The notes: generated from the letters alone by a model not told the origin. Numbered from the stretch's first letter, positions 9,095-56,724 are shown. The stretch: DNA of 64,000 nucleotides from an uncultured Clostridium sp. (GCA_964369695.1 CAYJGL010000001.1:123450-187449); one strand, 5' to 3'. A program made the numbers and translations.

Positions 9095-9140
9095 TTCAAA
9101 AATAAGAATGAGAATAACTTAAAAAAATATTCTCATTCTT
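9095..9140 (-). terminator. Rho-independent terminator
   Basis: 13-bp perfect stem AAGAATGAGAATA (9104-9116) / TATTCTCATTCTT (9128-9140), enclosing the TGA of gene 9133-9696. Followed on the minus strand by ATTTTTG. Confidence 0.65.
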
Positions 9141-9696
9141 TCTTATTAATCCACCGATAAGGAAATAACCAAGTTTCTATTTCTTTTCCATATTTTTTAG
9201 TAGTTATTAATGGTTTAAATTTTATAGATTTTGAATTTTTATTATTATGTATTTTTATTTTACCAATATAATTCATATCAATAGGTTTAGTTATCCAAGT
9301 TTCATCAGTAACATCAGCATCAAATACTAATCTTCGTTTTACAATTTCTTTATTAGAAATAATATGATTTGGACTTATTTTATTTTGTTTAATAGCATAA
9401 ACATATCCTACGGCTACTCTACTTCTAAATCCTTCGTGTCGAAATTTTTTAGCTTTATCAGCTCTTACAAATACATATGGAGAACCTAAAATACACCCAT
9501 CTATACTAGTCGATACACATATTCTAGGAATATGCCCGTCTTCTAATGATTTAATATTTACTTGAGGAACTCTTGGAATTAATTTTATTTTTTCTCCATA
9601 ATATTTCATAGATAAGTGATAATAATATATATTATCATTATCAACATCATCAATATAATCAGATAAAGATTCATATACTAACATATTGATATTCAT
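9133..9696 (-). CDS. N-terminally tagged protein (MNINMLVYESL...), function unknown
   Basis: 187 aa, AAGGA SD. Carries the shared tag. Contains YYYHLS...LIPRVP, similar to the YLYHIS...LLSPRG segment of ORF 32222-32797. Confidence 0.8.
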   Translation of the reverse strand: MNINMLVYESLSDYIDDVDNDNIYYYHLSMKYYGEKIKLIPRVPQVNIKSLEDGHIPRICVSTSIDGCILGSPYVFVRADKAKKFRHEGFRSRVAVGYVYAIKQNKISPNHIISNKEIVKRRLVFDADVTDETWITKPIDMNYIGKIKIHNNKNSKSIKFKPLITTKKYGKEIETWLFPYRWINKKE

Positions 9697-9708
9697 ATTA
9701 AATCCTTA

Positions 9709-9741
9709 AATGGGAAGATTAATGATTATAATCTTCCCATT
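9709..9741 (-). terminator. 12-bp hairpin between genes (weak terminator or attenuator)
   Basis: AATGGGAAGATT (9709-9720) / AATCTTCCCATT (9730-9741). Only a short T-run on the minus strand. Confidence 0.35.
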
Positions 9742-9744
9742 ATT

Positions 9745-9939
9745 TTATTTTTTATACTTTCTTTTATTTTGTCTTCTTATTTTATTTTTTAAACGCCTTT
9801 TTATCTTTTCTTTTTGATTGATATATTTATTTTTAACATTATCATTTTTCCATAACAGATAATAAATATATGATGAACTATTAAGAAATTCAGATGCATT
9901 TGGTATATTTAAAATATCTGAATTTGGACTTATTTTCAT
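9745..9939 (-). CDS. Small highly basic protein (64 aa)
   Basis: C-terminus KEKIKRRLKNKIRRQNKRKYKK. Start abuts the recombinase stop. Confidence 0.5.
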   Translation of the reverse strand: MKISPNSDILNIPNASEFLNSSSYIYYLLWKNDNVKNKYINQKEKIKRRLKNKIRRQNKRKYKK

Positions 9940-11412
9940 TTAATATTCTTCATCTGGTGAATATGTTTCTGGTGAATATGTTTCTGTCGAATATGTTTCT
10001 GAAGAAGTTTCTGGGAAATAAGTCCCATACGATTCTGTATTTTCATTATCTGGTACTGTATTTTCTGCAGAAGTGAAATTTTCTGAAATAGTATTTTGGG
10101 ATTCATATTGTTGATTTTCTATAATTGGATTTTGATATGTTTCATTTTCTATAATTGGATTTTGATATATTTCATTTTCTATAACGACATTTGTATTATC
10201 ATTATCTTTACTATCTGCTAAATTTTGTTCATATAATGTTCTAAATAACATTACTCCAATTCTTTGTTGAGCAGAAACCGTTGCAGCATAATCAAACCAT
10301 TGTTTAAAATTAAGATCACTATTGTATTTTTTTATAAAATCTCGTTCATTAAATTTTTCACTAGAATACATCAATTCACCAGTATTAGGATCTATTACTT
10401 CTAAATGTCTAGCATTTGTTGCTCCATTTATTAGTAAAGGATATGGCATTTTCTTTTTATCTGGCCAAAATTTCTTTTCTGTCTTAGTTTTATTTGCCAT
10501 AAAATAATATTCACTTAAAACAGGAATAATCCCATATTTTTTATCAAAAACTAAGGGAATAGAATATTGTGAAGGAGCTAATTTATTCTTTTCAGTAAAT
10601 ACATTTAAAACCCAACCATCAACACCAAGTGGGTCAGTTGGCTTGAGTTGAACTCCTTTAGATAACCACAACCATTGTCTAACATTGTGTTGAAGAGCAC
10701 TCACATTAGTTGCAGATTTAAAATTACCAAAAGTACCAACAGTCTTTTCATCTGTAGCTGCTTGCCATGGTGCTTTAATTTGCATATTTGCTCTGACTTG
10801 ATCTATGACTATGAAAGTAATTCTATGCATTGCTAAAAATTGTTTAGCCTTTGTTAACTGAAATGTTAATTCTCTTGCTTTATATCCTATAACTTCATTT
10901 GGGTCTTCGGCATTTAAATCTTTACTCGATGGAGTAGCAGCAATAGAATCCCAAACTACCAGAATATCATATTCTTTCTGAGTTTTAACTTCCATTTGTT
11001 TCTTTAAATCAGCAAGTTGTTCTATTACTTCAAATATTTCTTTAACATTCATAACAAAAGGTTTATATAAAAATCTTTCTCTATCAATACCAAAAGTTTC
11101 AATACGATCTTCAATATCTTTACTTTCGCCACCAGCTGCAGATTCTGTATCTAAATAAATAACACATGAATTTTCATGTATTTTTAAAAACTGAGAACAT
11201 AAATATAATGAACATGTTGATTTCCCAGTTTCTGGAGTACTAGAAAATGCAACAGGACAACTAGATGTTATTCCTCCACCTAATAGAGCATCTAAATGTT
11301 TAATTCCTAATGGAGTTATGCATGGATTAGGAGGTATATAACTTCCATATTTTTTTTGTAAAGTAATATCAAATGCTTTTGTGAGTATGGCGGCATGATT
11401 TTTTTCAGACAT
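9940..11412 (-). CDS. RecA/UvsX-family recombinase with repetitive acidic C-terminal tail
   Basis: LDALLGGG...STPETGKST (Walker A), ILVVWDSIAA (Walker B), FIVIDQVRANM (RecA INQIR-like). The tail has ENE(I/T)YQNPII and ETYSP repeats. Confidence 0.75.
   Translation of the reverse strand: MSEKNHAAILTKAFDITLQKKYGSYIPPNPCITPLGIKHLDALLGGGITSSCPVAFSSTPETGKSTCSLYLCSQFLKIHENSCVIYLDTESAAGGESKDIEDRIETFGIDRERFLYKPFVMNVKEIFEVIEQLADLKKQMEVKTQKEYDILVVWDSIAATPSSKDLNAEDPNEVIGYKARELTFQLTKAKQFLAMHRITFIVIDQVRANMQIKAPWQAATDEKTVGTFGNFKSATNVSALQHNVRQWLWLSKGVQLKPTDPLGVDGWVLNVFTEKNKLAPSQYSIPLVFDKKYGIIPVLSEYYFMANKTKTEKKFWPDKKKMPYPLLINGATNARHLEVIDPNTGELMYSSEKFNERDFIKKYNSDLNFKQWFDYAATVSAQQRIGVMLFRTLYEQNLADSKDNDNTNVVIENEIYQNPIIENETYQNPIIENQQYESQNTISENFTSAENTVPDNENTESYGTYFPETSSETYSTETYSPETYSPDEEY
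9956..10000. repeat. 15-bp tandem repeat x3 in the recombinase 3' end (ETYSP)n
   Basis: GGTGAATATGTTTCT x2, then GTCGAATATGTTTCT. Confidence 0.85.
10114..10185. repeat. 30-bp tandem repeat about x2.4 in the recombinase tail (ENE(I/T)YQNPII)
   Basis: ATTTTCTATAATTGGATTTTGATAT(G/A)TTTC repeated. Confidence 0.85.
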
Positions 11413-11437
11413 TTAAAGTATTCCTTTTTTGTTAAAA

Positions 11438-12010
11438 TTATAGTCTATACTTATCATCATCTTCTATTCTTGTCATAATATTTGATAATGAATTATTTTT
11501 AATTTCATTTTCAGTTTCATTTTTTAAACTTGATTTTTCTAGATTATTTAACATTTCAACTAGTCTTGCTGTATTTACCTCTTGAGATTTATCTTCTAAT
11601 CCTAATTTTGCTAATTCAATTTCAATATATCTTGCTTTTCTACAGATAAAATCAGACTGTTCTTTTCTATATCTAAATTTAACTTCCATAGCTTTAAGAT
11701 ATAAGCTTTCAAAAGTGGCTATTAATTCTAAACATTCATTTAATATTTGATAAAATTTTCCTCTCTGCCCAGGATTAGTTTCATTATTTATTAAATTTTT
11801 TAAATTATTAACTTGAGTTTGTAAACTAGAAATATAATCTTGTATTTGTATTAATCTTGTATCAACATGATTAATATCATTATTATAATTTGTTTTAATT
11901 TCAATGAAATCTTTACGATCATCACCAGGAGATTCTACAGTTGGTGTTTGAGTTATAAGATTATCTATCTGATTTTTATTATAACTTTTACTATAATTTT
12001 TATTATTCAT
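11438..12010 (-). CDS. Coiled-coil protein (190 aa)
   Basis: Heptad-rich sequence (LQTQVNNLKNLINNE...). No enzymatic motif. Confidence 0.7.
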   Translation of the reverse strand: MNNKNYSKSYNKNQIDNLITQTPTVESPGDDRKDFIEIKTNYNNDINHVDTRLIQIQDYISSLQTQVNNLKNLINNETNPGQRGKFYQILNECLELIATFESLYLKAMEVKFRYRKEQSDFICRKARYIEIELAKLGLEDKSQEVNTARLVEMLNNLEKSSLKNETENEIKNNSLSNIMTRIEDDDKYRL

Positions 12011-13271
12011 TATATTCTCCTAAGCCAGATAAAACTATTTTTAAAAATTCTTTTAATTGTTCAACAAATTTTACACCAGATAAATTAACAGAAGTTAGAG
12101 TTAACATATCAATGAACTCTCCTTTTGTTAATGAATTTGTAAATGTTATAGAAATATTATTCACAACATCATATAATATATCTTTATTCAAAACATTTTT
12201 AAATTTAAGATATAGTACATCTTTTACAGCTTCTTTTATCATTATTATATCATTGTCTAAAAAAGTTTTATTATCTGATATTATCTGAACAGATCTTAAT
12301 AATCTATATATTTGTGGTAACTTATATTTTATATTAGACATTTCTTTCATATCTGTATGGATTTTTAATAAAGAAATTTTATTATTATTAATATTAAAAT
12401 TACCATCTGTAATAGAATATAAATATAAGCGTTGTAATTCATTTGGGATTATCATATTTTTTATCATGTCATATTGATTATTTATCCGATTAAGAGCACC
12501 AGATTCACTACACATACTTTGTATTTGACTTAAATATAATGCTTCTTCATAAATTTTATATCGTTCGGACAATACTATATTATTATCATCAAGTATATTT
12601 GGATCTATATCACAATTTTTAACTCCTGAAATCTTATGTTTTAAATAAAAATATAAGATTTTACTAAACAGAGCTTCATAAAATTGATCAATATCTTCCA
12701 TTTCAAAAGGATTGAATTTGTATATTAAGTTATTAAAAAACATTTGCATAACATCATTTTTAATAATCATATTATCAGATTCATATAAATCTTTGTAAAA
12801 ATCTATAGCATGTGATACTTTATGTTCTATCTTAACATATGCATTTTTTAAATATCGATATATCAATCTCCTAGCTTTTATTAAGTGTTTTGAACATAAA
12901 TTTATTATATTTATAAAATAAATTCTTTCAATATATTCATTTTCTTTTAAATCAAGATGTTTCACATTATATCTTAAAAATAAATTAGAAACAATATACA
13001 ATATATATAATTGTTGTTCTGAAGTTGTTAATTTTAAAATATTAGGACAACTATAATTATATATTTTATCCAAAAAAGGACCCATAATTTCTTTAGATAT
13101 AGAATATTGTCCTTTTGTTTGAAATTTAACTTGTAATTTTATTATTTTTTGAATATGCGGTCCTATTTCAGATTCAAATAACTCATCTAGTGGTATAAAA
13201 TTAAATTTAATACAAATATCATTATTGTCTAATAAGGTGTTGTCAAAAATTTCATCAAATACATTTGACAT
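12003..13271 (-). CDS. Hypothetical protein (422 aa)
   Basis: Long ORF with GGAGGA SD; the SD and start lie inside a 10-bp inverted repeat (13272-13316). Confidence 0.8.
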   Translation of the reverse strand: MSNVFDEIFDNTLLDNNDICIKFNFIPLDELFESEIGPHIQKIIKLQVKFQTKGQYSISKEIMGPFLDKIYNYSCPNILKLTTSEQQLYILYIVSNLFLRYNVKHLDLKENEYIERIYFINIINLCSKHLIKARRLIYRYLKNAYVKIEHKVSHAIDFYKDLYESDNMIIKNDVMQMFFNNLIYKFNPFEMEDIDQFYEALFSKILYFYLKHKISGVKNCDIDPNILDDNNIVLSERYKIYEEALYLSQIQSMCSESGALNRINNQYDMIKNMIIPNELQRLYLYSITDGNFNINNNKISLLKIHTDMKEMSNIKYKLPQIYRLLRSVQIISDNKTFLDNDIIMIKEAVKDVLYLKFKNVLNKDILYDVVNNISITFTNSLTKGEFIDMLTLTSVNLSGVKFVEQLKEFLKIVLSGLGEYNE

Positions 13272-13316
13272 ATAAGATCCTCCATATAATAGTTAAATCC
13301 TTATGAAGGATCTTAT
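13272..13316 (-). promoter_or_regulatory. 10-bp perfect inverted repeat sequestering the SD/start of gene 12003-13271
   Basis: ATAAGATCCT (13272-13281) pairs with AGGATCTTAT (13307-13316). On the minus-strand RNA the downstream arm covers AGGA of the GGAGGA SD and runs up to the ATG at 13271. Confidence 0.45.
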
Positions 13317-13340
13317 ATCTTTATACTCTTGTTTATAAAT

Positions 13341-13628
13341 TTATGACTTAAATCGCAAAACAGATTTTCCATTAGGAGAGTTTAATGAATCATCTCTGGC
13401 AAACGAAGATTGATTTCCAAATCTCAAAACACTTCCACTATTTGAATTAAGATTACTTGAAACATCAAAATTTTTTGAAGTCCCATAATTTAAAACAGAA
13501 CCAGAACGAGTATTTATTTCACGACCACCATCATCTTGGTAAGATGGATATTTATCATTATACATTTCTGCACCATGAAAACCTTGCTGTTCAGTTAAAG
13601 CATCCATAACTAATTGATTAATGTCCAT
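13341..13628 (-). CDS. N-terminally tagged small protein (MDINQLVMDAL...)
   Basis: Track start 13637 sits directly on the SD; ATG at 13628 is 9 nt after GAGG. Three internal repeats: GSVLNYG / GSVLRFG / KSVLRFK. Confidence 0.7.
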   Translation of the reverse strand: MDINQLVMDALTEQQGFHGAEMYNDKYPSYQDDGGREINTRSGSVLNYGTSKNFDVSSNLNSNSGSVLRFGNQSSFARDDSLNSPNGKSVLRFKS

Positions 13629-13666
13629 AATTTTCATCCTCTAATGATATTATTGTTATTTTTTAT

Positions 13667-14582: not shown

Positions 14583-15686
14583 TTAATGTTTTAATGCTCT
14601 AATTAAACATCCTTCAGATACTGCTGTTAATGGATTATTAGCATGTCGTATTTCTGAAATTTCGAATGGAAATTCATATGAATTAAATTCATTTATAAAT
14701 ATGTCTAAAAATCCTTTAGCTTTTGATGTTCCACCACTAATAATGACTGGGATTTTGTCAGGAAAAGCTATATCTATCTTCTCTAATTTTTTAACTATAT
14801 GATCTATTGTATACTTTATTAAATCATTATAATAATAAGATAGTGCTTCTCTTATTCTTCTTTCTTTTTTATTAGAAGTTATAAAATTAGAAATATCAAA
14901 ATCATCTTTCTCTTTAACCAAAGTAACCCGATTACTGACTAATCCAGCAATATGAGATGACGTTTGTTCATCTATCCAATCACCTCCTCTAGCTAAAGAA
15001 AAATTAGAAACTTCTACTCCTTTAAATACGATTGCTATATTTGTCATACCAGCACCAAATGATATTCCAATACCAGTAAAATCTGAATTTTGACATTCAG
15101 AATAAATCAAAGAAACAGCTTCATATAATGGTAGAGGTTTATAATTTAATTGTTCAATTATTCTACTAAATACATTTTTATGAAATAAAACATTCATATC
15201 AACATCTATAGGATTAGCAGGTATACTATAACAACAAATAGAATTAGGATTAGTAGAATTTCCTATTAAAGCTCCTATAATAACTGATAATATATCTATA
15301 GAATCTATTTCTGAATTACTAATCATTCCTTTAGACATTGGTCTAGAAACTTGTTGTCCGAATATATTACCAAATATATAAGCATCTTCTGATAAAATAT
15401 ATGTACTGTCATCAATAACGGTATGAGAAATAGTACTCAAATCTCTTGTTCCTAACGAATCTGTATCTACTTTTAAAAAAACATTTCTAAAACTATGAGT
15501 AGATATTTTATTATCAGCTAAATTTTTTGCCATAACGATATTCATAGTTCCTATATCTAAACCTATATTATTAGATATAACAGAAGTATCTTCAACAGAC
15601 ATAAAATCAATCTCCTTTAATGATGTTATTAAACTCTCAACTACTAATCCTATTGAATATTCAAATTGATCATAATCCATATTCAT
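14583..15686 (-). CDS. MreB-like actin-fold (ASKHA) ATPase
   Basis: Phosphate-1 GLDIGTMNIV; phosphate-2 GISFGAGMTNIAIV followed by ARGGDWIDEQ (compare MreB RIGGDRFDEA); adenosine motif VIISGGTSKAKGF; C-terminal ANNPLTAVSEGC (compare MreB AEDPLTCVARG). Confidence 0.75.
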   Translation of the reverse strand: MNMDYDQFEYSIGLVVESLITSLKEIDFMSVEDTSVISNNIGLDIGTMNIVMAKNLADNKISTHSFRNVFLKVDTDSLGTRDLSTISHTVIDDSTYILSEDAYIFGNIFGQQVSRPMSKGMISNSEIDSIDILSVIIGALIGNSTNPNSICCYSIPANPIDVDMNVLFHKNVFSRIIEQLNYKPLPLYEAVSLIYSECQNSDFTGIGISFGAGMTNIAIVFKGVEVSNFSLARGGDWIDEQTSSHIAGLVSNRVTLVKEKDDFDISNFITSNKKERRIREALSYYYNDLIKYTIDHIVKKLEKIDIAFPDKIPVIISGGTSKAKGFLDIFINEFNSYEFPFEISEIRHANNPLTAVSEGCLIRALKH

Positions 15687-16189
15687 GTACTAATATTTAA
15701 ATGTTCGATTATTTCCTGTGTGTTTTTATGACATTGTGCTGATTTGATATCAACTATAACGGCTGTAGATATTTGATTTATATTTGGTATAAAACAATTT
15801 TCTTCTTTGATAGTCTTTTTAATTATATGATGTTTTGTTGGCACAACACAAGATGTAGTATCATATTCATTTTGATTAGAATGACATTCACATTCATGAT
15901 GAGGATGATGAGGATGATGATGAGGATGGTGAGAATGGTGATGGTGATGATATGGTGAAGTATGATGATGTAGATGATGATATGGTCTTGGGTGGTATAT
16001 ACCAGTAATATTTTCAACTATAAGTAATCTATTATTAAGCTCTGATAATTGACAAAGTATTCTTTCCATCAATTCTTGATTCTGTTGTCTATGTAAAATA
16101 TCATAGTGAAATTTACAATAACCATTTAATACGGATGGACTATCACAGTTTTTAAACTTGCATATACCTGCAGGGCATGCTTTGTTCAT
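15683..16189 (-). CDS. Cys-rich zinc-ribbon-like N-terminus plus histidine-rich tract protein
   Basis: CPAGICKFKNCDSPSVLNGYCKFH at the N-terminus, then HPRPYHHLHHHTSPYHHHHHSHHPHHHPHHPHHECECH. ATGA overlap with the MreB-like gene. Confidence 0.7.
   Translation of the reverse strand: MNKACPAGICKFKNCDSPSVLNGYCKFHYDILHRQQNQELMERILCQLSELNNRLLIVENITGIYHPRPYHHLHHHTSPYHHHHHSHHPHHHPHHPHHECECHSNQNEYDTTSCVVPTKHHIIKKTIKEENCFIPNINQISTAVIVDIKSAQCHKNTQEIIEHLNIST
15895..15985. repeat. Imperfect ATGATG/GTGATG microrepeats encoding a His tract
   Basis: GATGAGGATGATGAGGATGATGATGAGGATGGTGAGAATGGTGATGGTGATGA... Confidence 0.8.
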
Positions 16190-16446
16190 TATTCCCTCCT
16201 AGGTTGATTATATTTTCCTTCTTTTTTGGCTTTTCTTTCCATTTTATTAAGACGAGTATAGTAATCTGGTATTTCTGCTAAATGATCTTTTGCTATTTCG
16301 TCTGCTTTTTTAGGATCATTTGTATGTTCTTTTTCTACAGATCTTCCTATTTTCATTTGATTATTATTAAAAAATTTAGAATCAATATGTTGGTGTTTTC
16401 CTATACCTAAACTTTCTATAACTAAATTATTAATACTCATATTCAT
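16189..16446 (-). CDS. N-terminally tagged small protein (MNMSINNLVIESL...)
   Basis: 85 aa, AAGGA 7 nt before ATG, promoter-like motif about 50 nt upstream. Contains EKEHTNDPKKADEIAKDHLAEIPDYY. Confidence 0.7.
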   Translation of the reverse strand: MNMSINNLVIESLGIGKHQHIDSKFFNNNQMKIGRSVEKEHTNDPKKADEIAKDHLAEIPDYYTRLNKMERKAKKEGKYNQPRRE

Positions 16447-16530: not shown

Positions 16531-16755
16531 TCAATATTTATTTAAAATAGACTTATAATTTTGAACAGTATCTTCATCTTCATCTCTTTTAAAGCTAGGC
16601 ATATTATACTTTTTTTTAAAAAAACGATTAGAAGATTTTATTTTTTTACAATAATTATCAATATCAGTAAACGTTCCATTTATTTCTCCATCATATGCAT
16701 TGTCAAATACATATGATGGACTTATAGATTCATAAACTAATAAGTTTATATTCAT
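16531..16755 (-). CDS. N-terminally tagged small protein (MNINLLVYESI...)
   Basis: Track start 16767 is TTG and overlaps the upstream stop; ATG at 16755 yields the tag exactly at the N-terminus. Confidence 0.65.
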   Translation of the reverse strand: MNINLLVYESISPSYVFDNAYDGEINGTFTDIDNYCKKIKSSNRFFKKKYNMPSFKRDEDEDTVQNYKSILNKY

Positions 16756-21256: not shown

Positions 21257-24200
21257 TTATTTTATTTGTTTAGTATATATTTTCCATTCACCAATCGAAT
21301 GACCAGTTCCTCCTTCAGTTATAGAAGAATATCTACAAAGTCTATATCTATTATATTCATTGGTTATATTTTCTAAAGTAAATTCTTTAAGTACTAAATT
21401 TCCCCAAGTTTGAGGATCTGAAACATCATGAATTAAGTCCCAATTAACTCCATTATCTGGAGATGCATATAATCTCCACTTATTAAAACAAGGATGATTA
21501 TAATTGATTTGTTGAATAGAATATGAATATGGTTTAAACCGTATACTAAATTGAATATCTATGAATGGAGTATCCTTAATATTTGTCGGAGTATCCATAT
21601 GCCAACAATATGTATTTGATGTTGCTGTGTCAAATTTCTGTAAACTCCGATAAACCATATGTTGAGGATGTCCATGTTCAGCATTATATTCATACGTATA
21701 ACCATTTGGAGGAGTTTGTCCAGTCCAGGCAGGTAATATATCTTCTCCATTTTTATCATAAAAGAATATACTACCAAGAGTCTGACCTTCAATATCATAT
21801 ATCCAAATTTCATCATATTCAAAATCATAATCAAAATCTAATATCATTGAATGAGTTGCATCCCATTCTAATGAAGGTGCTATATTTAAAATTCCATCAG
21901 ATCCATCTCTTGTATAAGAATCATATAACAATACATATGTGTTTGTATTTGCAATTCTAGCTTTTAACTTATATTGATTGATAGTTTGTGCCAAATAACT
22001 CCCTCTTCTACAAATTTTAGCACTTTTAATAGATCTTGGGGATGGTATTGTTATTTTAAGAAATACAGTTTCTGAATTAAGACAGTTTCCTTGTTCATAC
22101 CAATCTTGATGATATGAACTAACATCTTTATTAAATGCTTTAAATGGATAATAATCAGTATTATACATGCTTGAAGCAGTTGCTCGTTGATAAATTTTCT
22201 GATCATTCCATTTTCCAGGAAGAGTATATGATAAAGTTTTATTAGTCATTTGACCTATAATATCATAAGCTTCATCCTGATATTCTGGTAATGGAACACC
22301 TTTAAATTCTAAAAATTTAGATTTTGATTGTTTTGTAAATATATTCCATTGACCAATAGCATGCCCTTCTCCACCTTCTAATGATGAATATCTTCTTAAT
22401 CTATACCTATTATATATATTTGTTATATTTTCTAATACAAAATTTTTAACTTCTAAATAATTCCAAGTTTGATGGTCAGAAACATCATGTATTAAGTCCC
22501 AATTAACTCCATTATCTGGAGATGCATATAATCTCCACTTATTAAAATTAGGATAATTTAAATCAGACTGTTGTAACGTATAAGAATACGGTTTAAATAA
22601 AGCATTAAAAATAATATCAATAAAAGGACTATATTCTGGCATTTTATCTTCTGAGTATGTTTTTGATCTTGTTGGTAATTGCCAAGATCTATTCGTTATA
22701 TGACCATCAGACAATATTCTCCAAGGTTTGAAATTAATATGATTTTGATAAGGATAACCTTCACATTCATATCCTTCTTCTAATTCCTCAGTAGTAAATC
22801 TTGGAAATATAGCCTTTCCATTATTATCATAAATATATATTCTGCTGATTAAACTGGTAGATATATCATATATATATATTTCATCAAATAATAAATCAGT
22901 AGGATTATACAATTCAAACTCTAAAGAGTCTTGGTTCCAAACTAAGTTTGAAGTTGTATTATTAAGTCCTTGATTTTCATAATTATTATATGTATCATAT
23001 AATAATATAAATTTAGAATATCCTAATGGTTTAGCTTTTACTCTAAATTGTCTTGGACTTCTATTATAATATGTTGATATTGTTGTTATCTTTAATTTTT
23101 TCAATATTTTAGGAATTGGTATTTTTAATCTAAAATAAGTGCAAGAATTATAAGTACCTAAACCATTTGCAGACCATAATGTATTATCATTATTATCAAA
23201 TGATTTAAATGGGGCAAAATCAATAAGATTAGCACCATCAATACTAGATGCTATAGTCTTTTGTTGAATAGGTAAATTTTCAAAATGACCATCAATAGTA
23301 TGTTCTAAAATATTAGAAAACATCATACCAATCATATTATAAATCTCTATAATAACTTCTGTACTTGGTGCTTTTGGATTAATATTTATTTGTTTAGTAA
23401 AAATCTTCCATTCACCAATAGAGAGATTAGAACCTCCTTCAGAAGTTGCATATCTTCTAAGTCTATATCTATTATACTCATTTGTTATATTTTCTAATAC
23501 AAATGTTTTTTCTACTAAATTTCCCCAAGTTTGAGGTTCTGAAACATCATGAATTAAGTCCCAATTAACTCCATTATCTGGAGATGCATATAATCTCCAC
23601 TTATTAAAACAAGGATGATTATAATTGATTTGTTGAATAGAATATGAATATGGTTTAAATCTTATATTAAATAAAATTTCTAGAAATGGTTCTACTTGAG
23701 AATTATGTGCATACCAACCACTATAAGATCCTGCGTTTGTAATTTTATTTAGAACGTTCCAAGTTTGCCAACCACTAGAACTGTACCATGGAAATATTTC
23801 ATATTCGTATCCAGATGGAGCAGATGAACTTGTCCATATAGGCAATATATCTTCATTATTTTCATCATAAAACCAAACACCAGTCATATGAGTAAATGAG
23901 ATGTCATAAAACCATATTTCATTAAATGATAAATCATATTCATTATCTAAATCAAATATTTTAAATGCTTCAGAATTTTCCCAAATTATACTAGGAGATA
24001 TTTCCAAAATACCATCCGAACCATCTGAAGTATATGAATCATACAATAGCACGAATTTATCTAAATCTGGACTAAATCCTTTAACTCTAAACTGAAGTAT
24101 TCCATCTTCAGAATAATTTGCTAATTGCTGTATTTTTATTTTTTTAAATATTTTTGGATTAGGCAATTTAACCCACATATATGCCGTTTCTTGAAAATGA

Positions 24201-25888
24201 CTTCCATTTCCAACATACCAATTTTGATAATAACTACTGACATCTTTATTAAATGCCTTAAACGATGCATAATTTGAATTATAAATACCAGAAGATAATG
24301 CTCTTTGGTGAATTTTTTCATTATTCCATTTCCCAGAAATATTATAAGAATGAGTATTTGAAGACATTTTTCCAATAATATCATAAGCATCTTCTATAAA
24401 TAATAAAACATCAACAGATATTGTAAAAGGATTGAAATTATAATAATATTTAATAAAATTAGAAATTAGACATTGTCCAATATATTGTATTATATGATCT
24501 TTTTCTCTTGGTTCTTTATACATAACTTTACCAGATTCTATATTAGAAACATATATATTAGAAGAAACGGCATTACTATTTGTTTGTTTAGTATATATTT
24601 TCCATTCACCAATCGAATGACCAGTTCCTCCTTCAGTTATAGAAGAATATCTACAAAGTCTATATCTATTATATTCATTGGTTATATTTTCTAAAGTAAA
24701 TTCTTTAAGTACTAAATTTCCCCAAGTTTGAGGATCTGAAACATCATGTATTAAGTCCCAATTAACTCCATTATCTGGAGATGCATATAGTCTCCACTTA
24801 TTAAAACAAGGATGATTATGATTAACTTGTTGAATTGAATAAGAATGTGGTTTAAACATTATACTAAATTGAATATCTAGGAATGGAGTATTCTTAATAT
24901 TTGTTGGAGTATCCATATGCCAACAATATGTATTTGATGTTGCTGTGTCAAATTTCTGTAAACTCCGATAAACCATATGTTGAGGATGTCCATGTTCAGC
25001 ATTATATTCATACGTATAACCATTTGGAGGAGTTTGTCCAGTCCAGGCAGGTAATATATCTTCTCCATTTTTATCATAAAAGAATATACTACCAAGAGTC
25101 TGACCTTCAATATCATATATCCAAATTTCATCATATTCAAAATCATAATCAAAATCTAATATCATTGAATGAGTTGCATCCCATTCTAATGAAGGTGCTA
25201 TATTTAAAATTCCATCAGATCCATCTCTTGTATAAGAATCATATAACAATACATATGTGTTTGTATTTGCAATTCTAGCTTTTAACTTATATTGATTGAT
25301 AGTTTGTGCCAAATAACTCCCTCTTCTACAAATTTTAGCACTTTTAATAGATCTTGGGGATGGTATTGTTATTTTAAGAAATACAGTTTCTGAATTAAGA
25401 CAGTTTCCTTGTTCATACCAATCTTGATGATATGAACTGACATCTTTATTAAATGCTTTAAATGGATAATAATTAGTACTATACATACTTGAAGCAGTTG
25501 CTCGTTGATAAATTTTCCGATCATCCCATTTTCCAGAAATAGTATGTTCTAAAGTTTTATTAGTCATTTGACCTATAATATCATACTCTTCTTCTGATTC
25601 TGGAGGTGTTCCCTCTTCAGTAGTAACAATATATCCAAATAATAGCAAGTCACAACGACTATTTGAAGATTTATTTTCTAAAGAAACAGCTCGTGCTGGC
25701 ATTTTTTCTGGATCAGATGATAATGCTTTCATCCATCGATTCAAAGGTATATCAAAATATAATATATCTCCTATAATAACAGATTCTCCAACTACACCAT
25801 GTGTATATAATCCTGAAGTATCATTTTCTGCTGTTATATTAAAATAATTATTGGACCCTTTTGTTAAAATATCAGAAATAAATTTCAT
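21257..25888 (-). CDS. Giant tail fibre / receptor-binding protein with four double discoidin-like units
   Basis: About 1543 aa. FNKWRLYASPDNGVNWDLIHDVS occurs four times, each followed by NEYNRYRL(R/C)RY...GG.G..IGEWKI(Y/F)TKQ. First and fourth units are nearly identical. Track start 25894 is TTG; ATG at 25888 follows GAGGA. Confidence 0.55.
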   Translation of the reverse strand: MKFISDILTKGSNNYFNITAENDTSGLYTHGVVGESVIIGDILYFDIPLNRWMKALSSDPEKMPARAVSLENKSSNSRCDLLLFGYIVTTEEGTPPESEEEYDIIGQMTNKTLEHTISGKWDDRKIYQRATASSMYSTNYYPFKAFNKDVSSYHQDWYEQGNCLNSETVFLKITIPSPRSIKSAKICRRGSYLAQTINQYKLKARIANTNTYVLLYDSYTRDGSDGILNIAPSLEWDATHSMILDFDYDFEYDEIWIYDIEGQTLGSIFFYDKNGEDILPAWTGQTPPNGYTYEYNAEHGHPQHMVYRSLQKFDTATSNTYCWHMDTPTNIKNTPFLDIQFSIMFKPHSYSIQQVNHNHPCFNKWRLYASPDNGVNWDLIHDVSDPQTWGNLVLKEFTLENITNEYNRYRLCRYSSITEGGTGHSIGEWKIYTKQTNSNAVSSNIYVSNIESGKVMYKEPREKDHIIQYIGQCLISNFIKYYYNFNPFTISVDVLLFIEDAYDIIGKMSSNTHSYNISGKWNNEKIHQRALSSGIYNSNYASFKAFNKDVSSYYQNWYVGNGSHFQETAYMWVKLPNPKIFKKIKIQQLANYSEDGILQFRVKGFSPDLDKFVLLYDSYTSDGSDGILEISPSIIWENSEAFKIFDLDNEYDLSFNEIWFYDISFTHMTGVWFYDENNEDILPIWTSSSAPSGYEYEIFPWYSSSGWQTWNVLNKITNAGSYSGWYAHNSQVEPFLEILFNIRFKPYSYSIQQINYNHPCFNKWRLYASPDNGVNWDLIHDVSEPQTWGNLVEKTFVLENITNEYNRYRLRRYATSEGGSNLSIGEWKIFTKQININPKAPSTEVIIEIYNMIGMMFSNILEHTIDGHFENLPIQQKTIASSIDGANLIDFAPFKSFDNNDNTLWSANGLGTYNSCTYFRLKIPIPKILKKLKITTISTYYNRSPRQFRVKAKPLGYSKFILLYDTYNNYENQGLNNTTSNLVWNQDSLEFELYNPTDLLFDEIYIYDISTSLISRIYIYDNNGKAIFPRFTTEELEEGYECEGYPYQNHINFKPWRILSDGHITNRSWQLPTRSKTYSEDKMPEYSPFIDIIFNALFKPYSYTLQQSDLNYPNFNKWRLYASPDNGVNWDLIHDVSDHQTWNYLEVKNFVLENITNIYNRYRLRRYSSLEGGEGHAIGQWNIFTKQSKSKFLEFKGVPLPEYQDEAYDIIGQMTNKTLSYTLPGKWNDQKIYQRATASSMYNTDYYPFKAFNKDVSSYHQDWYEQGNCLNSETVFLKITIPSPRSIKSAKICRRGSYLAQTINQYKLKARIANTNTYVLLYDSYTRDGSDGILNIAPSLEWDATHSMILDFDYDFEYDEIWIYDIEGQTLGSIFFYDKNGEDILPAWTGQTPPNGYTYEYNAEHGHPQHMVYRSLQKFDTATSNTYCWHMDTPTNIKDTPFIDIQFSIRFKPYSYSIQQINYNHPCFNKWRLYASPDNGVNWDLIHDVSDPQTWGNLVLKEFTLENITNEYNRYRLCRYSSITEGGTGHSIGEWKIYTKQIK
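21268..22275. repeat. About 1-kb intragenic direct repeat, copy 1 (fourth fibre unit)
   Basis: Near-identical to 24586-25593 at a constant offset of 3318 nt. The track shadow ORFs at 21559/24877 and 21583/24901 are almost identical. Confidence 0.85.
24586..25593. repeat. About 1-kb intragenic direct repeat, copy 2 (first fibre unit)
   Basis: See copy 1 (21268-22275). Confidence 0.85.
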
Positions 25889-25890
25889 AA

Positions 25891-26340
25891 TCAATCCTCA
25901 ATCATCTGTAAAACAAGTGGACTAAAATCAAAATATCCAACATTAGTTCCTAATGCTGTTCCTATTACTTGTTTAAATGAATTAGTAACAGGAACAATAT
26001 CTGTAGCTAAACCCAATTCAGTATCAGAAACGTAAATATAATTAGATGTAAAATTCCAATTATCATTTCTTATTGTTCCATTTTGTAATAATTTAATTGT
26101 AGAATCTACTAAACCATTTTCACAGGATATTGCTTTACAAGGTAATGTTTCTTGAATATTTGATTTAGCTAATTTCCATTTATTTAATTTAAAATCAAAA
26201 TATAAACATTGTCCAAAATAAACATCTTCTCCTAATAAGCCATCAACTATAAATCCACTATATTCAAGATTATTTGGAGCAACATTTACTCTTATTTTTG
26301 AATTAGGACCTAATGATTGTAAACTTCCTATTACTTTCAT
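25891..26340 (-). CDS. Small fibre-module protein sharing the fibre N-terminal anchor domain
   Basis: 149 aa. GEDVYFGQCLYFDFKLNKWKLAKSN..LPCKAIS aligns with GESVIIGDILYFDIPLNRWMKALSS..MPARAVS and GEDVKKGDLLYYDDNLKKYMKALSS..MPCRAIA of the two giant genes. Confidence 0.7.
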   Translation of the reverse strand: MKVIGSLQSLGPNSKIRVNVAPNNLEYSGFIVDGLLGEDVYFGQCLYFDFKLNKWKLAKSNIQETLPCKAISCENGLVDSTIKLLQNGTIRNDNWNFTSNYIYVSDTELGLATDIVPVTNSFKQVIGTALGTNVGYFDFSPLVLQMIED

Positions 26341-26400: not shown

Positions 26401-26475
26401 TGTTTATAAAGGTATTAAGGTGGGATATTCCTATCTGAAGCATTTTGTGATATCTTAATTCTTTTGGAGGAACAT

Positions 26476-26670: not shown

Positions 26671-26707
26671 TTGCCAAGGGAACGTCAACATCCCTCAATT
26701 TGTTGAC

Positions 26708-26745: not shown

Positions 26746-26758
26746 TTAGGAGTCAAAT

Positions 26759-26863: not shown

Positions 26864-26875
26864 AAATATCAGAAA

Positions 26876-41044: not shown

Positions 41045-41482
41045 TTATAACTTAATAAGGCGTATTCTAGAACCTGGCATTCCATTTGGTTCTAATAAAT
41101 TATATCGATCATCACAAGTGTTCATTTTAAATATAAAATCAATTCCATTCTCATATGTTAAAGATCCTCCCCCAACATAAGTCGTTCTTTCTTTTTTAAA
41201 ATCTTCAAATTTTAAATTTTTAGGACCTTCTAAAACTCCAATTATTTCTTCTCCTTTATTCAATTCATTCAAATTGATTAAAGGAAATGTAAATTCAAGA
41301 TAATCGCTATGTGAAAATTCTTTATTTACTTCAAATATTAATTTAATATCATCATTATCTTCAAAAATAATCATATTTCCTTTTTGATTTGACATTGAAT
41401 TTTCTTCTAATTCTGTAGGAGTATAATTTTCTAATACAATATTATAAAATGACTCATATACAAGATCATTTATATTTTTCAT
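41045..41482 (-). CDS. N-terminally tagged protein (MKNINDLVYESF...)
   Basis: 145 aa, GGAGAAAAT before ATG. Tag at the N-terminus. Confidence 0.75.
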   Translation of the reverse strand: MKNINDLVYESFYNIVLENYTPTELEENSMSNQKGNMIIFEDNDDIKLIFEVNKEFSHSDYLEFTFPLINLNELNKGEEIIGVLEGPKNLKFEDFKKERTTYVGGGSLTYENGIDFIFKMNTCDDRYNLLEPNGMPGSRIRLIKL

Positions 41483-41498: not shown

Positions 41499-42047
41499 TT
41501 AAATTATTTTATTTAGATTGTTTTTATTTAAATTCCAATTGAATTCTGGAGAACAACTATTTAAATATTCATTCCAAGTCAATATCGAGATATTATATAT
41601 TTTAACATTACTTTGTAGTCTTTTAATTTCAAGTGGAACATTTATATCATCATAATTAAACAAAAAATCTTTTCCAAAAATTAGATTATTCATATCATAA
41701 TCAATCCAATCTTCAAATTCTTTTATTAAAACAGAAAATGCAGTTAAAGGTGTATCTGGATCTATAAATATAGGATATATTGGCATGTTCTTTTGACATA
41801 ATATTTCTAAATTATCATCTTCTTTAAAGGAATGACATTTTCCATGACAATGTTCGATATGATAATGATTATCAACATAATTAAAAATATTAGTTGAAAT
41901 TGTATTTAGTTCTATTATATTATTTTTAATATCTTCTATTGGAATGTTTTTTATAATATTTGCAAGTACTGAAATTTGTTTACCAGCATCTGTTAAAGTT
42001 GTTTCTAAATTATCTATTAAAAGTTTAGTTTCTATATAAATAGACAT
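41499..42047 (-). CDS. EF-hand/dockerin-like loop family member 3 (degenerate loop)
   Basis: HYHIEHCHGKCH; DYDMNNLIFGKDFLFNYDDINVP...WNEY parallels the modules in 42055-42513 and 32790-33779. Confidence 0.75.
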   Translation of the reverse strand: MSIYIETKLLIDNLETTLTDAGKQISVLANIIKNIPIEDIKNNIIELNTISTNIFNYVDNHYHIEHCHGKCHSFKEDDNLEILCQKNMPIYPIFIDPDTPLTAFSVLIKEFEDWIDYDMNNLIFGKDFLFNYDDINVPLEIKRLQSNVKIYNISILTWNEYLNSCSPEFNWNLNKNNLNKII

Positions 42048-42054: not shown

Positions 42055-42513
42055 TCACTTAAGGTAATCTGGTAATGTTTGTTTATATGAATCCCAACTT
42101 ATTTGATTATAATTGAAATCTATTATTTCTAATAATTCATTTATTTGAGGAGGAGCATTCTTATCATTAGGGATTATTACAAAATCTTTACCATATATTA
42201 ATCCATTTCCATCACAATCAACATTATGTTGAAATTCTCTAATTAATAAATCAGAGAGACTCAATGAACTATCTAATAACGGACTTCCAGGTTTTGCTTC
42301 AAATTTATCTGAACATAAATGAGGTGAATTATGCAAATGAGAATTATGTATATGTATTAAACAATCTTTTAATTCTTTTGTATTTGTAGAAATAGATGAT
42401 AACATTGTTTGTACTTCATTCAAGTTATTAGAAAGGAAATTTATAGATTCTGCAGTTAGTTTTAATGGATTTAATAATTTGGAAACGTCTACATTAATTA
42501 TAGTATTTGACAT
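42055..42513 (-). CDS. EF-hand/dockerin-like loop family member 2
   Basis: IHIHNSHLHNSPH; DCDGNGLIYGKDFVIIPNDKNAP...ISWDSY. Confidence 0.75.
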   Translation of the reverse strand: MSNTIINVDVSKLLNPLKLTAESINFLSNNLNEVQTMLSSISTNTKELKDCLIHIHNSHLHNSPHLCSDKFEAKPGSPLLDSSLSLSDLLIREFQHNVDCDGNGLIYGKDFVIIPNDKNAPPQINELLEIIDFNYNQISWDSYKQTLPDYLK

Positions 42514-42522: not shown

Positions 42523-42720
42523 TTATTTTAAATCATTAATTGATTGTTTTAGTCCATGTTTTAAACCTAATTCATATGCTTTTACATTACTTTTAACATT
42601 TGCTATTCCTCTAACTCTTCCAGATTTTGTAGTTCCATATTTCTTAAAACGTTTACTAAAATGATCTCGAGGATTGAACGATTCAGACAATATGTTATAA
42701 ATCATATTATTAATATTCAT
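42523..42720 (-). CDS. N-terminally tagged small basic protein (MNINNMIYNILSESF...)
   Basis: 65 aa. Tag variant with LSES. Confidence 0.6.
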   Translation of the reverse strand: MNINNMIYNILSESFNPRDHFSKRFKKYGTTKSGRVRGIANVKSNVKAYELGLKHGLKQSINDLK

Positions 42721-42731: not shown

Positions 42732-43490
42732 TTAGTATTTTAAAAAAGAAGGAGCATGTCCTAAAAGTTGGTTTCCTATAAATTTTAAACGATTAACCCA
42801 ACCTTTCCAAAATTTTTGTTGTGTTGGTTTTTTTATTATAATTTGTTTATAAAATTTATATCTTAATTCTATATATTTATTTATAATTTCAATTTCAGAT
42901 TTATAATTCATTATGGAAGATAATGCTGTTAATGTTTTTGGTCCTATTTTACCATCTTCTGAAATTTTATTAGATAAGAATTCGTTTAATGTTCTTTGTA
43001 AATATTTTTGACCAACACTTACACCTGAATTAATATTCATATCATATACTAGAATAGCTATATTTTCTGGTAAGTCATCACAACTCGAATTATCCCAAAA
43101 CTGAGATTTAAAATATAATATAGATTGATATTTAAGATTAATATCATTATCTACTTTTTCTATAAATTTTGAACTTCCTCTACCAAATTGATTAGCCATT
43201 TCATCAACAAAAACCCACCCATTCCAATTTGGATGAAAATTTCTAGCAACACCAAAAATAGTTTCACCTCCTCTATCATGAGTAACATCATTCCATCCAC
43301 CTTCATTTATCGAAACTATCGAAACTGCTTTTTGAAATGGTTTTGTAAAATTCAATAATAATTGTTCTAAAGAATTATTATTAACTTCTTTTTCAATATT
43401 AGAATTATCAGTTTCAATTAATAAATCATCAATATTTATTAAAATAGTTTCTTTTATAAGACTTAATAATTTATCAACATCTATCTTCAT
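42732..43490 (-). CDS. GH108 lysozyme with PG_binding_3-type peptidoglycan-binding domain (endolysin or virion lysin)
   Basis: NEGGWNDVTHDRGGETIFGVAR (GH108 EGGy.ndp.D.GG.T..GI), then FWDNSSCDDLPENIAILVYDMNINSG and DGKIGPKTLTAL. Confidence 0.85.
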   Translation of the reverse strand: MKIDVDKLLSLIKETILINIDDLLIETDNSNIEKEVNNNSLEQLLLNFTKPFQKAVSIVSINEGGWNDVTHDRGGETIFGVARNFHPNWNGWVFVDEMANQFGRGSSKFIEKVDNDINLKYQSILYFKSQFWDNSSCDDLPENIAILVYDMNINSGVSVGQKYLQRTLNEFLSNKISEDGKIGPKTLTALSSIMNYKSEIEIINKYIELRYKFYKQIIIKKPTQQKFWKGWVNRLKFIGNQLLGHAPSFLKY

Positions 43491-43860: not shown

Positions 43861-44496
43861 TTATACGAATAATTTTATTAAACGAAATAATACATCTGTT
43901 ATGCTTTTTGTTTCTTTAGAAGTATATTTTAATCTAGTTAAAAATCGATCAATTAATTTAGTTATCAAATATATACTTCCACTAGTTAATGCTTGATTTC
44001 CTATTCTAGAAACATTTGAATATAATTGTTGATAACGAACATCTTCTCCGACCATATATTTTTGAAATTTAGAAGGTAAATCATATTTATTAGCATAATG
44101 TAATATTGTTTCTGCTTTTTGATTAACATTAGAATCATTAGGATGTGCTTTTTTATAATTATTAACAACGTATCTGATTGTTGAAGAACCATGTCCTATA
44201 ATTGATCCTATCAATACCAATCCTAATAACAATAATAATTTATTAAGTTCAGTATCCATACTTGAATTGTCTAAATTGTCATTTCTATGATTATTATGTT
44301 GATGGTGTTGATGATGTTGATGACGATGTTGATTATGATGTTGATTATGATGTTGATTATGATGTTGATGACGATGTCGATTATGATGTTGATTATGGTA
44401 TTGATGATTTCTATTATATTGATTATAATAATTTCGATTATCAATACTTTCAGATATATAATCTAAAGAATATAATAATTGATGAATATCCCTCAT
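43861..44496 (-). CDS. His/Gln-rich protein with one TM segment; weak version of the N-terminal tag
   Basis: MRDIHQLLYSLDYISES..., then HQYHNQHHNRHRHQHHNQHHNQHHNQHRHQHHQHHQHNNH, then LLLLLGLVLIGSIIG. Confidence 0.7.
   Translation of the reverse strand: MRDIHQLLYSLDYISESIDNRNYYNQYNRNHQYHNQHHNRHRHQHHNQHHNQHHNQHRHQHHQHHQHNNHRNDNLDNSSMDTELNKLLLLLGLVLIGSIIGHGSSTIRYVVNNYKKAHPNDSNVNQKAETILHYANKYDLPSKFQKYMVGEDVRYQQLYSNVSRIGNQALTSGSIYLITKLIDRFLTRLKYTSKETKSITDVLFRLIKLFV
44290..44410. repeat. 12-bp-unit imperfect tandem repeat (GATGTTGATTAT) encoding a His/Gln/Asn tract
   Basis: Read directly. Also generates the shadow ORFs in the track. Confidence 0.8.
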
Positions 44497-55726: not shown

Positions 55727-55740
55727 ATATATAGATATAT
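55727..55740 (+). promoter_or_regulatory. Promoter-like motif ATATATAGATATAT
   Basis: 33 nt upstream of ATG 55774. Confidence 0.35.
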
Positions 55741-55773
55741 GATATAAACATTTAACCCACAAAGGAGGCACTT

Positions 55774-55977
55774 ATGTGGGATTGGTTTAAAAATCTTGGT
55801 CGGCCTAAAAAGCCGACAAACATTGATTACCTGAACGCAATATTAGATCGCGTTCAGGTAGAAATGACAGTAGACCAACATGGATTAGTTGGTCCAGTCA
55901 AAATAGTTATAGGAAAAAAAGATGTTACAACCAACACCGTTGATACAACAATATCAACGGAAGCAACGGAAGATTAA
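55774..55977 (+). CDS. 67-aa ORF in GC-richer island; may be coding, a structured RNA, or both
   Basis: AAAGGAGG 5 nt before ATG and a promoter-like motif upstream support coding. Four strong hairpins inside the ORF argue for RNA/DNA structure (see the hairpin-cluster feature at 55799-55960). Confidence 0.45.
   Translation: MWDWFKNLGRPKKPTNIDYLNAILDRVQVEMTVDQHGLVGPVKIVIGKKDVTTNTVDTTISTEATED
55799..55960 (+). other. Cluster of four consecutive hairpins (possible structured RNA or protein-binding palindromes)
   Basis: H1: GTCGGC/GCCGAC, 55799-55817. H2: TACCTGAACGC/GCGTTCAGGTA, 55828-55860, 11 bp perfect. H3: GACCAAC/GTTGGTC, 55873-55894. H4: CCGTTGATA/TATCAACGG, 55937-55960, 9 bp perfect. 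Confidence 0.6.
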
Positions 55978-55979
55978 AC

Positions 55980-56031
55980 TTTTTAGAAGATGAAAAATAT
56001 ATTATAATTTTTTCATCTTCTAAAAATTTTT
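55980..56031. terminator. Bidirectional rho-independent terminator at a convergent junction
   Basis: 18-bp stem TTTTTAGAAGATGAAAAA (55980-55997) / TTTTTCATCTTCTAAAAA (56009-56026), followed by TTTTTATTT. Confidence 0.8.
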
Positions 56032-56257
56032 ATTTCATTCTAAATCCCATTTGAGGAAGTTGTCCAGTTGGAGTAGGAGATGCTGCTGGATTTCTATAAA
56101 TATTTTGAGTCTGTGACCTTTGATTTATATTTGATGGTCTTTGAGTTGGCGATCCACTTCTTGCTACTTGAGAATATCCTCCACCAGCAGAAGGTTGCCA
56201 TAATCTTTCAAATAATTCAGTAGAAAAACTTTCAAAAACCAAATCATTAATAGTCAT
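56030..56257 (-). CDS. N-terminally tagged small protein (MTINDLVFESF...)
   Basis: 75 aa, Pro/Gln/Ser-rich remainder. Confidence 0.65.
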   Translation of the reverse strand: MTINDLVFESFSTELFERLWQPSAGGGYSQVARSGSPTQRPSNINQRSQTQNIYRNPAASPTPTGQLPQMGFRMK

Positions 56258-56271
56258 ATTTTACTCCTTTA

Positions 56272-56724
56272 TTAATATTGTCTATTTGAATCATATTCTT
56301 TATTCTTAAAAAAATCAGAAATACCATTTTTAGCGTTAGTCCCTTTATTATACAAACGTTGAGCACCATAATGAGCTCCACCAGTTATAGCTCCTCCAAC
56401 TCCTGCTCCAACCATCATTGATTTTTTAAATGAATTTTTAGAATTTAGATCATTTAATCTATCCCTAAAGTAATTTTGAGCTTCGCCGGATTGAGCTGAA
56501 TTCAATTTATTTTCTAAACTTCTCCTTCTAAAAAAATTAACAACTTTACTTCCTATTCCAAAAGTAAGCCCAGATGCTAGTCCTCCTAATCCAGCACCTA
56601 CCATTGCTGTCTTAGAAGTTGCAGCATTAGCAGCAGAACCTAATCTACTTGTTCCTCCAGAAGATTGTGGAGGAGATTGTTCATTTTCAGTAAATGAATT
56701 TAGAACTAATAAATTTATATTCAT
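56272..56724 (-). CDS. N-terminally tagged glycine-zipper protein (MNINLLVLNSF...)
   Basis: 150 aa, GGAGAATTAA before ATG. Two internal repeats: MVGAGLGGLASGLTFGIG and MVGAGVGGAITGGAHYG. Confidence 0.75.
   Translation of the reverse strand: MNINLLVLNSFTENEQSPPQSSGGTSRLGSAANAATSKTAMVGAGLGGLASGLTFGIGSKVVNFFRRRSLENKLNSAQSGEAQNYFRDRLNDLNSKNSFKKSMMVGAGVGGAITGGAHYGAQRLYNKGTNAKNGISDFFKNKEYDSNRQY

Follow-up and report, generated by a model that had tools for sequence, protein, structure and literature searches.

Why would a phage begin ten otherwise unrelated proteins with one and the same short peptide? The question is raised by a 64-kb stretch of DNA (the window) out of a 263,784-bp contig from an uncultured Clostridium sp. 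(CAYJGL010000001.1, 123450-187449), in which ten minus-strand genes begin with the tag M-(x)-[NDST]-I-N-x-[LM]-[VI]-x-[E]-[S]-[FLI], 10-12 residues in length. The recognisable genes of the window, encoding a UvsX-like recombinase, a Rad3/DinG-type helicase, a tail protein, a PKD-repeat protein, an actin-like 'Volactin' protein and an endolysin, identify it as part of an uncultured jumbo phage. We find that the tag is real, selected as a peptide, modular (tag, linker, unrelated body) and conserved across the lineage, and we favour, with a little better than even confidence, the view that it is an N-terminal address label, a capsid-targeting propeptide of the T4 type, which would send its bearers to the head, be cut off and leave them to be ejected. 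Tagged genes are named here by t and their start coordinate (t41482 is the gene starting at 41482), and L-numbers denote the loci or contigs used for comparison.

A tag selected as a peptide

Translated in six frames, the window contains the string IN.LV 12 times. Nine of these occurrences sit one to four residues after the Met of minus-strand open reading frames (ORFs) of 74-191 amino acids (aa), and none lies inside a real gene; the longer string IN.LV.ES occurs six times, always at the N-terminus of such an ORF. Because composition alone gives about six IN.LV in each shuffled window, the raw count is not the argument; the position and the extended motif are. When a 10-column scoring matrix was derived solely from ten tags of related contigs, without the window tags, nine window tags took ranks 1-9 among the approximately 62,000 positions of the six-frame translation. 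The full matrix gave the ten window tags 16.6-29.3 bits, and every other position in the window stayed below 10 bits. No tag was found in 632 kb of other loci from more distant relatives (matrix maximum 13.7) or in 82 kb of T4 (matrix maximum 15.2). The best T4 match, DINTIVENML in the prohead core protein gp68 (L008 5132, residue 37; 15.2 bits), was recognised post hoc, may be due to chance and was not used.

The tag had first been described in a sequence-only reading of the window, and most of that description stands. All ten start coordinates and peptides were confirmed, including the three starts that it placed inside longer ORF calls (13628, 16755 and 32797), each of which is supported by a better ribosome-binding site or by its overlap with the stop of the gene upstream. 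The bodies are mutually unrelated, as it had stated: once 14 residues are removed, no pair in the window is similar at E<0.1. The possibility of a compositional artefact, which it had raised itself, is answered by the absence from the window of internal or out-of-frame copies and by the restriction of the extended motif to N-termini. The DNA upstream of the tags is dissimilar save for Shine-Dalgarno-like GGAG/AGGA, and the synonymous codons for Ile, Leu, Val, Glu and Ser vary both among the window tags and between genomes; selection therefore acts on the peptide, as had been argued, and not on RNA. RNA-level explanations were rejected on the same variation of codons and on the lack of any Rfam or tRNA match. 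The proposed weak eleventh member did not survive: this 211-aa ORF (43861-44496, minus strand; MRDIHQLLYSLDYISESI), with a His/Gln/Asn-rich region and one hydrophobic segment, scores below 10 bits, has only I-S-E-S at residues 14-17 in common with the others and is not counted.

The tagged genes of the window

All ten genes lie on the minus strand, and their tags are attached to bodies of very different character. The first, t9696 (9133-9696, 187 aa), begins MNINMLVYESL and continues with an acidic linker and a basic globular body (pI 9.6) that matches phrog_10766/5043, families of unknown function; its weak homologues in the jumbo phages Goslar, Eowyn and BCSR5 align only from query residue 27-55 and are therefore without the tag. 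The product of t13628 (13341-13628, 95 aa, 21.7 bits) begins MDINQLVMDALTE, in which L-T-E ends at residue 13, and has a Ser/Asn/Gly-rich body; its true start is at 13628, 8 nt downstream of AGAGGA, rather than at 13637. Two genes follow as a pair: t16446 (16189-16446, 85 aa), where MNMSINNLVIESL precedes a DUF5661 domain (residues 15-72; Pfam PF18905, E=1.2e-14), and t16755 (16531-16755, 74 aa, 25.1 bits), which starts with MNINLLVYESI and whose listed ORF begins at TTG 16767, four codons upstream of 16755. A second pair consists of t32212 (31949-32212, 87 aa, 23.7 bits), with MINNLVFHYLEE, Y-L-E and L-E-E ending at residues 11-12 and a very basic body (pI 11.2), and t32797 (32222-32797, 191 aa, 28.3 bits), with MINNLVYESF and a basic body (pI 9.5), the start of which overlaps by 8 nt the stop of the upstream gene 32790-33779.

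The sole acidic body of the window set (pI 4.6) belongs to t41482 (41045-41482, 145 aa, 29.3 bits; MKNINDLVYESF). Near it lies t42720 (42523-42720, 65 aa, 16.6 bits), which adjoins the endolysin gene (42732-43490); its leader MNINNMIYNILSESF, with E-S-F displaced by 4 residues, is followed by a basic body (pI 10.6). The last pair comprises t56257 (56030-56257, 75 aa, 26.8 bits), with MTINDLVFESF and a Gln/Pro/Ser-rich basic body (pI 11.7), and t56724 (56272-56724, 150 aa, 23.5 bits), with MNINLLVLNSFTENE, two glycine-zipper-like stretches and a basic body. Sequence searches of the PDB found no match for three cargo proteins or for three neighbouring large ORFs.

An adjacent gene pair without assigned function (41499-42047 and 42055-42513, minus strand) is matched in L002 and L005 by homologues that keep this order and carry the motifs HIHD.HLH and NGLI(F/Y)G.DF. 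This pair always adjoins tagged genes, and in the window and L002 it lies near the endolysin gene.

Distribution of the tag in related phages

Near relatives of the window are absent from the INPHARED phages as searched by megablast and tblastn. Protein-guided scans of IMG/VR gave no close relative and two tag DNA patterns gave chance matches only; the GTDB genomes gave two chance matches and no relative. The window helicase is 44-48% identical to a handful of metagenome proteins and 35% identical to helicases of Rhizobium phages of 200 kb; Ackermannviridae and further large phages rank lower among its matches. In a helicase-guided metagenome scan, the matches listed were mostly distant helicases without tags, and a word-index protein search with t41482 matched t41482 alone.

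The contigs with the closest helicases (L002, L004 and L005) bear the same tag. Together with L081 (from a 258-kb contig, ENA ERZ27262924 k141_300951), L084 and L085, which were located via DUF5661 homologues and hold two tags each, syntenic with the window, they bring the number of other related contigs in which the tag recurs to at least six. More distant relatives (helicases 34-40% identical) showed no tag in the 20 kb seen.

In L002, 7-8 tagged genes lie within 8 kb, with the tags MSNINDLVSEGL, MSNINTLVSEML, MSNINSVVAAIL, MSNINDIVANYL, MSNINDLVEEGI, MSNINELVFEAL and MEINELILEVF, the last on the orthologue of t42720 (56% identical over 41 aa). L005 bears MNINDLVFESF and MDINLLVMLSLIENEQ, and L004 bears MSDINNLVTESF as well as a Tad6-domain protein with two tag-like copies. 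The proteins with MDINLLVMLSLIENEQ in L005 and with MSNINELVFEAL...SSGGTS in L002 are likely orthologues of t56724. Conservation of tag and body can be very different: between t41482 and its orthologue L005_7125 (MNINDLVFESF), 10 of 11 tag residues are the same and the bodies are 26% identical. L002 also encodes a ClpS homologue and a PARP-like ADP-ribosyltransferase (2832-3128 and 11957-13393).

Anatomy of the tag and the hydrophobic-x-Glu site

The tag consensus can be written M-(x)-[ND]-I-N-x-[LIVM]-[VI]-x-E-[SAG]-[LFI]. Its hydrophobic residues fall at i, i+3, i+4 and i+7, with helical hydrophobic moments of 0.23-0.52, compared with 0.45-0.58 for T4-type leaders. It is acidic (net charge -1 to -4 over the first 14 residues) and is followed by a low-complexity linker. 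It is unlike a Sec/Tat signal peptide, which has a positively charged n-region and then a hydrophobic core of at least 10 residues: the acidic tag contains just 4-5 hydrophobic residues, with Asn, Asp and Glu between them.

A hydrophobic-x-Glu sequence ([LIVMFY]-x-E) ends at residue 8-16 in all 22 tags from the window and its relatives, including the seven that lack the canonical Glu and have a displaced L-T-E, F-T-E, L-S-E, Y-L-E, I-L-E, L-Y-E or L-I-E instead. All 10 tagged genes of the window have the site, against 14 of 70 untagged genes (Fisher p=1e-6). At the level of sequence, these counts agree with the earlier suggestion that V-[YF]-E, or an L-x-E slightly later, is a candidate T4-like processing site. 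The accompanying suggestion of a phiKZ-like (S/A/G)-x-E rule does not fit, because P3 is here V/L/I/F (or Y), as in T4; it is mostly Val rather than Leu or Ile.

Nature of the cargo

The cargo had been expected to include small basic proteins, and this proved to be its general character. The tagged proteins of the window are 65-191 aa long; their median body isoelectric point (pI) is 9.6, against 8.1 for untagged proteins of at most 200 aa (p=0.008), and the body pI is at least 8 in 20 of the 22 tagged proteins.

At least one tagged cargo domain is linked elsewhere to head assembly. DUF5661, the domain of t16446, forms residues 206-263 of a DUF2213 protein of Vibrio phage VPs20 (Chaseviridae), which matches the PHROG 'head maturation protease' over its full length (phrog_530, E=3e-64) and whose gene is positioned between the terminase and capsid genes. 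In the T4-like phage Cr30, DUF5661 follows the leader MKDFKSFLNAR, and three Cr30 N-termini (L079 28015-28335, L080 8665-8907 and L077 2151-2363), one of them on a Tpt1-like protein, read MKxFKxF, like MKTFKEF of T4 IPI. In addition, T4 gp61.1 (gene 61.1, L074 18966-19130) starts with MKTFKEFIKE, like the targeting sequence of IPI/IPII/IPIII, and a protein of the T4-like cyanophage S-SRM01 (L076 8157-8465) starts with MKSFKQFISESV. These leaders suggest that T4-like phages contain unlisted proteins bearing a capsid-targeting sequence (CTS). Homology of t9696 and t32797 to the Tpt1-like protein of Cr30, for which a shared YYYH after the leader was considered, was not significant and was dropped as evidence (BLASTP E=0.2-0.3; different PHROG families).

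A full HMMER search returned 5,413 DUF5661 representatives, of which the small members bear three types of short leader: the tag described here (MSNINLLVLESL, MSNINLLVLENL, MEINKVILESF), in-between forms (MKTINKFLSESI, MKRINLFLHEQ, MKVINIFLKSQ) and T4-like forms (MSKYQKILADFLDES). The same cargo domain therefore stands behind exchangeable leaders. The second half of the leaders (hydrophobic-hydrophobic-x-E-S-hydrophobic) is common to T4-like phages and the window lineage.

A tagged protein of L004 (6172-6636, minus strand) has a Pfam Tad6 (Thoeris anti-defence) domain. Its tag-like copies are MPFNSFILESL at the N-terminus and TINDLVTEAL at residues 20-29.

A proposed T4-type capsid-targeting propeptide and its alternatives

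The tag has the sequence features expected of a T4-type CTS, and a mechanism can be proposed on that model. As a short acidic helix, the tag would present a hydrophobic face (I, L/M, V/I, F/L/I), end in hydrophobic-x-Glu and lead into a flexible linker. This helix would dock the tagged proteins on the scaffolding core of the assembling prohead; the prohead protease would then cut the tag off after Glu; and the mature, mostly small and basic proteins would stay inside the head alongside the DNA and accompany it into the host. Some of the ejected cargo would be likely to be anti-defence or membrane-active proteins. A possible processing enzyme is the M48-like zinc metallopeptidase encoded at 6010-6846 (minus strand; HEIGH motif, Pfam PF01435, E=5e-11), the gene of which has the same order of neighbours in the window and in the tag-bearing L081 and L085.

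Several observations weigh against this reading. None of the approximately 60 window ORFs compared with PHROGs and Pfam was recognisable as a gene for a capsid, scaffold, portal or prohead protease, phmmer with T4 gp20-24, 67 and 68 found no head homologue in the window, and the flanks of the relatives show no prohead protease, scaffold or capsid gene; as only 64 of 264 kb are visible, the missing head genes amount to silence, not absence. The tag matrix scores the T4 IP leaders at -18 to -31 and gp24 at 2.4 bits, so that there is no significant similarity, and outside the T4 internal proteins a CTS role for MKxFKxF leaders, as in Cr30 and S-SRM01, is itself inferred. About 12% of the window genes are tagged, many more than the few proteins of T4 that bear a CTS. 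Glycine-zipper or hydrophobic stretches occur in several cargo proteins, and both in the window and in L002 the endolysin gene is flanked by tagged genes, which could point to membrane or lysis roles. Single-sequence AlphaFold2 (AF2) models of t9696 and t32797 have pLDDT values of 31 and 41 and are unusable. Finally, conservation extends beyond the putative cut site (E-S-[FLI]), which fits a docking helix that does not need cleavage.

This last point leads to the alternative that survives best, unlikely as we consider it: an uncleaved docking or encapsulation peptide that would take its diverse cargo to another common partner, built by phage or host. Candidates for this partner include a chaperone, a membrane complex, a cavity in the tail or baseplate, and a shell or compartment inside the cell. 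The layout of helix, linker and unrelated cargo would suit such a peptide, and the residues conserved past the Glu, S-[FLI], lie on the same helical face as the others (I3, L6, V7, F10). Head genes are not nearby, and the tagged genes stand amid tail, lysis and DNA-metabolism genes; furthermore, the lineage has an actin-like protein and its relatives a multisubunit RNA polymerase, both characteristic of jumbo phages whose cell biology is elaborate. However, no shell protein (chimallin-like, bacterial microcompartment (BMC) or encapsulin) is among the Pfam and PHROG matches of the window, a hydrophobic-x-Glu that may be displaced yet is ever present better fits a protease site, and the link of DUF5661 to a head maturation protease, together with the T4-like leaders, indicates the head. 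A broader form of the same thought, to which we give slightly less credence still, is that the tag is a general sorting code of the jumbo-phage lineage, an uncleaved helix that would route dozens of small proteins elsewhere than to the capsid. By analogy with microcompartment encapsulation peptides, the destination could be a phage-built compartment, a membrane machine or a tail cavity.

Distinctly less probable is a regulatory N-terminus, that is, a degron or protease site that times the life of the protein (through the M48-like peptidase or ClpS/ClpAP), or a nascent-peptide or translation-initiation element. The M48-like peptidase gene is syntenic in the window, L081 and L085, the ClpS homologue of L002 is encoded among tagged genes, and starts rich in AAT/ATA/AAT favour initiation; however, initiation efficiency does not explain a conserved L-V-x-E-S-[FL] peptide with free synonymous change, a Met-Asn/Ser start is not a ClpS N-degron, M48 peptidases are not known to be linked to such tags, and the small, basic, hypervariable cargo is left unexplained. 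A functionless historical by-product, in which the 5' end of a gene was copied together with new-gene insertions through recombination at a common start cassette, would suit tagged genes that are small, often paired (16446/16755, 32212/32797 and 56257/56724) and variable between relatives, but it is very improbable and largely refuted by the codon evidence, as upstream DNA and third codon positions are unconserved, no internal or out-of-frame copies exist, and the tag is kept across genomes that have diverged to only 45% identity in their helicases and to 26% in the bodies of orthologues.

If the tag is indeed a capsid-targeting propeptide, a simple N-terminal pattern would reveal, directly from sequence, which proteins an entire uncultured jumbo-phage lineage packages and injects. 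It would thereby provide a catalogue of candidate anti-defence and host-takeover effectors, and a Tad6 domain is already present on the tagged protein of one relative. It would also mean that short T4-style targeting sequences exist outside the T4 family, in a jumbo phage, and the graded leaders on DUF5661 proteins suggest that such labels evolve while cargo is exchanged between phage families. In addition, a tag of 10-12 residues could serve to load foreign proteins into large capsids.

Other features of the window and its relatives

The window has a G+C content of 25%, its minus strand holds nearly all genes up to 56.7 kb, and Shine-Dalgarno sites are present. The phage actin-like protein (14583-15686, minus strand) aligns along its entire length with Pfam Volactin (E=3.5e-76). 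The gene of the 1545-aa tail protein (21257-25894, minus strand) contains an internal duplication of about 3.3 kb, with one set of nested ORFs (91, 125 and 51 aa) present both at 21559-22206 and at 24877-25524. A segment of about 550 bp (26415-26963) has a G+C content above its surroundings, with no convincing gene and no tRNA or Rfam match.

On the plus strand, 15 small genes (117-266 aa, 18-21% G+C) form an array at 56860-63942. Many of them have the C-terminal motif LLK.YNP.EYE.LKL in common and their pairwise similarity is weak, so that a conserved C-terminus on diverged bodies mirrors the finding made at the N-termini of the tagged proteins. The relative L006 has a comparable array of genes for 80-117 aa ending E[KR].RW.L..G. 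The more distant relative L007 encodes, at 115-5485, a multisubunit RNA polymerase in split genes and a neck protein like T4 gp13.

Comparison with known systems

Short N-terminal labels on unrelated proteins are known from bacterial microcompartments, where encapsulation peptides, which are amphipathic helices followed by a linker, load unrelated enzymes into the shell and are not cleaved. These peptides need BMC shell proteins, and their cargo consists of metabolic enzymes. The tag differs in that its cargo consists of small basic proteins, and no BMC shell protein was seen in the window.

Among jumbo phages, phiKZ, 201phi2-1 and SPN3US have many internal or ejected head proteins that are cut after Glu by a protease related to T4 gp21, and in SPN3US two diverged paralogues have an identical 15-residue N-terminus (PMC5694885, PMC7411985). 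The motif cut in phiKZ-like phages has a small residue (A/S/G) at P3 (PMC5694885), whereas the tag has V/L/I/F. The phiKZ-like propeptides are mostly 80-160 residues long with no common short tag, in contrast to the 10-12 residues of the tag. To our knowledge, only long, non-uniform propeptides have been found in the jumbo phages studied so far.

The closest precedent is T4, in which, as Mullaney and Black are said to have described in 1996, the internal proteins IPI/IPII/IPIII, Alt and gp24 have a CTS. These propeptides of 10-20 residues are cut off by gp21 (PMC5694885), and the internal proteins are diverse anti-defence proteins with only the CTS in common (PMC3012670, PMC9391042). In the T4 record, IPII and IPIII begin MKTYQEFIAE|A, IPI begins MKTFKEF...ITE|A and gp24 begins MAKINELLRE|S. 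The sequence-only reading had invoked this precedent, and the layout, the logic of the cut site and the size and charge of the cargo do match; the sequence itself does not. In both cases, a short N-terminal peptide, of 10-19 residues, stands on otherwise unrelated proteins of one phage, and it is an amphipathic helix ending in hydrophobic-x-Glu before a small residue. The cargo is likewise small, mostly basic (pI 9.4-9.7 for T4 IPII and IPIII, like the tagged bodies), hypervariable and scattered over the genome, and some cargo genes lie beside the endolysin gene, as ipII and ipIII lie beside gene e in T4. The differences are the sequence, MNINxLVYES here and MKTYQEFIAE in T4; the number, ten tagged genes per 64 kb here; and the phage, an uncultured jumbo phage of 264 kb, the visible 64 kb of which contain no detectable homologues of T4 head genes. 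The likeness of gp24 (MAKINELLRES) to the tag, at only 2.4 bits, is a lead only.

The two kinds of label are connected only by the graded intermediate leaders on DUF5661 homologues. The MKxFKxF leaders of Cr30, S-SRM01 and T4 gp61.1 end F-[FI]-x-E-S-[LV] (for example, MKTFKQFFNESL and the S-SRM01 leader), the same second half as in the tag (L-V-Y-E-S-[LF]), and in Cr30 they precede the same DUF5661 cargo domain; their first half, MK-F-K, differs from M-N-I-N. The likeness to the T4 CTS is strengthened by the universal hydrophobic-x-Glu, the basic cargo, the DUF5661 links and the intermediate leader forms, and we regard the tag as a probable new sequence variant of the known T4-type capsid-targeting principle, in an uncultured jumbo phage.

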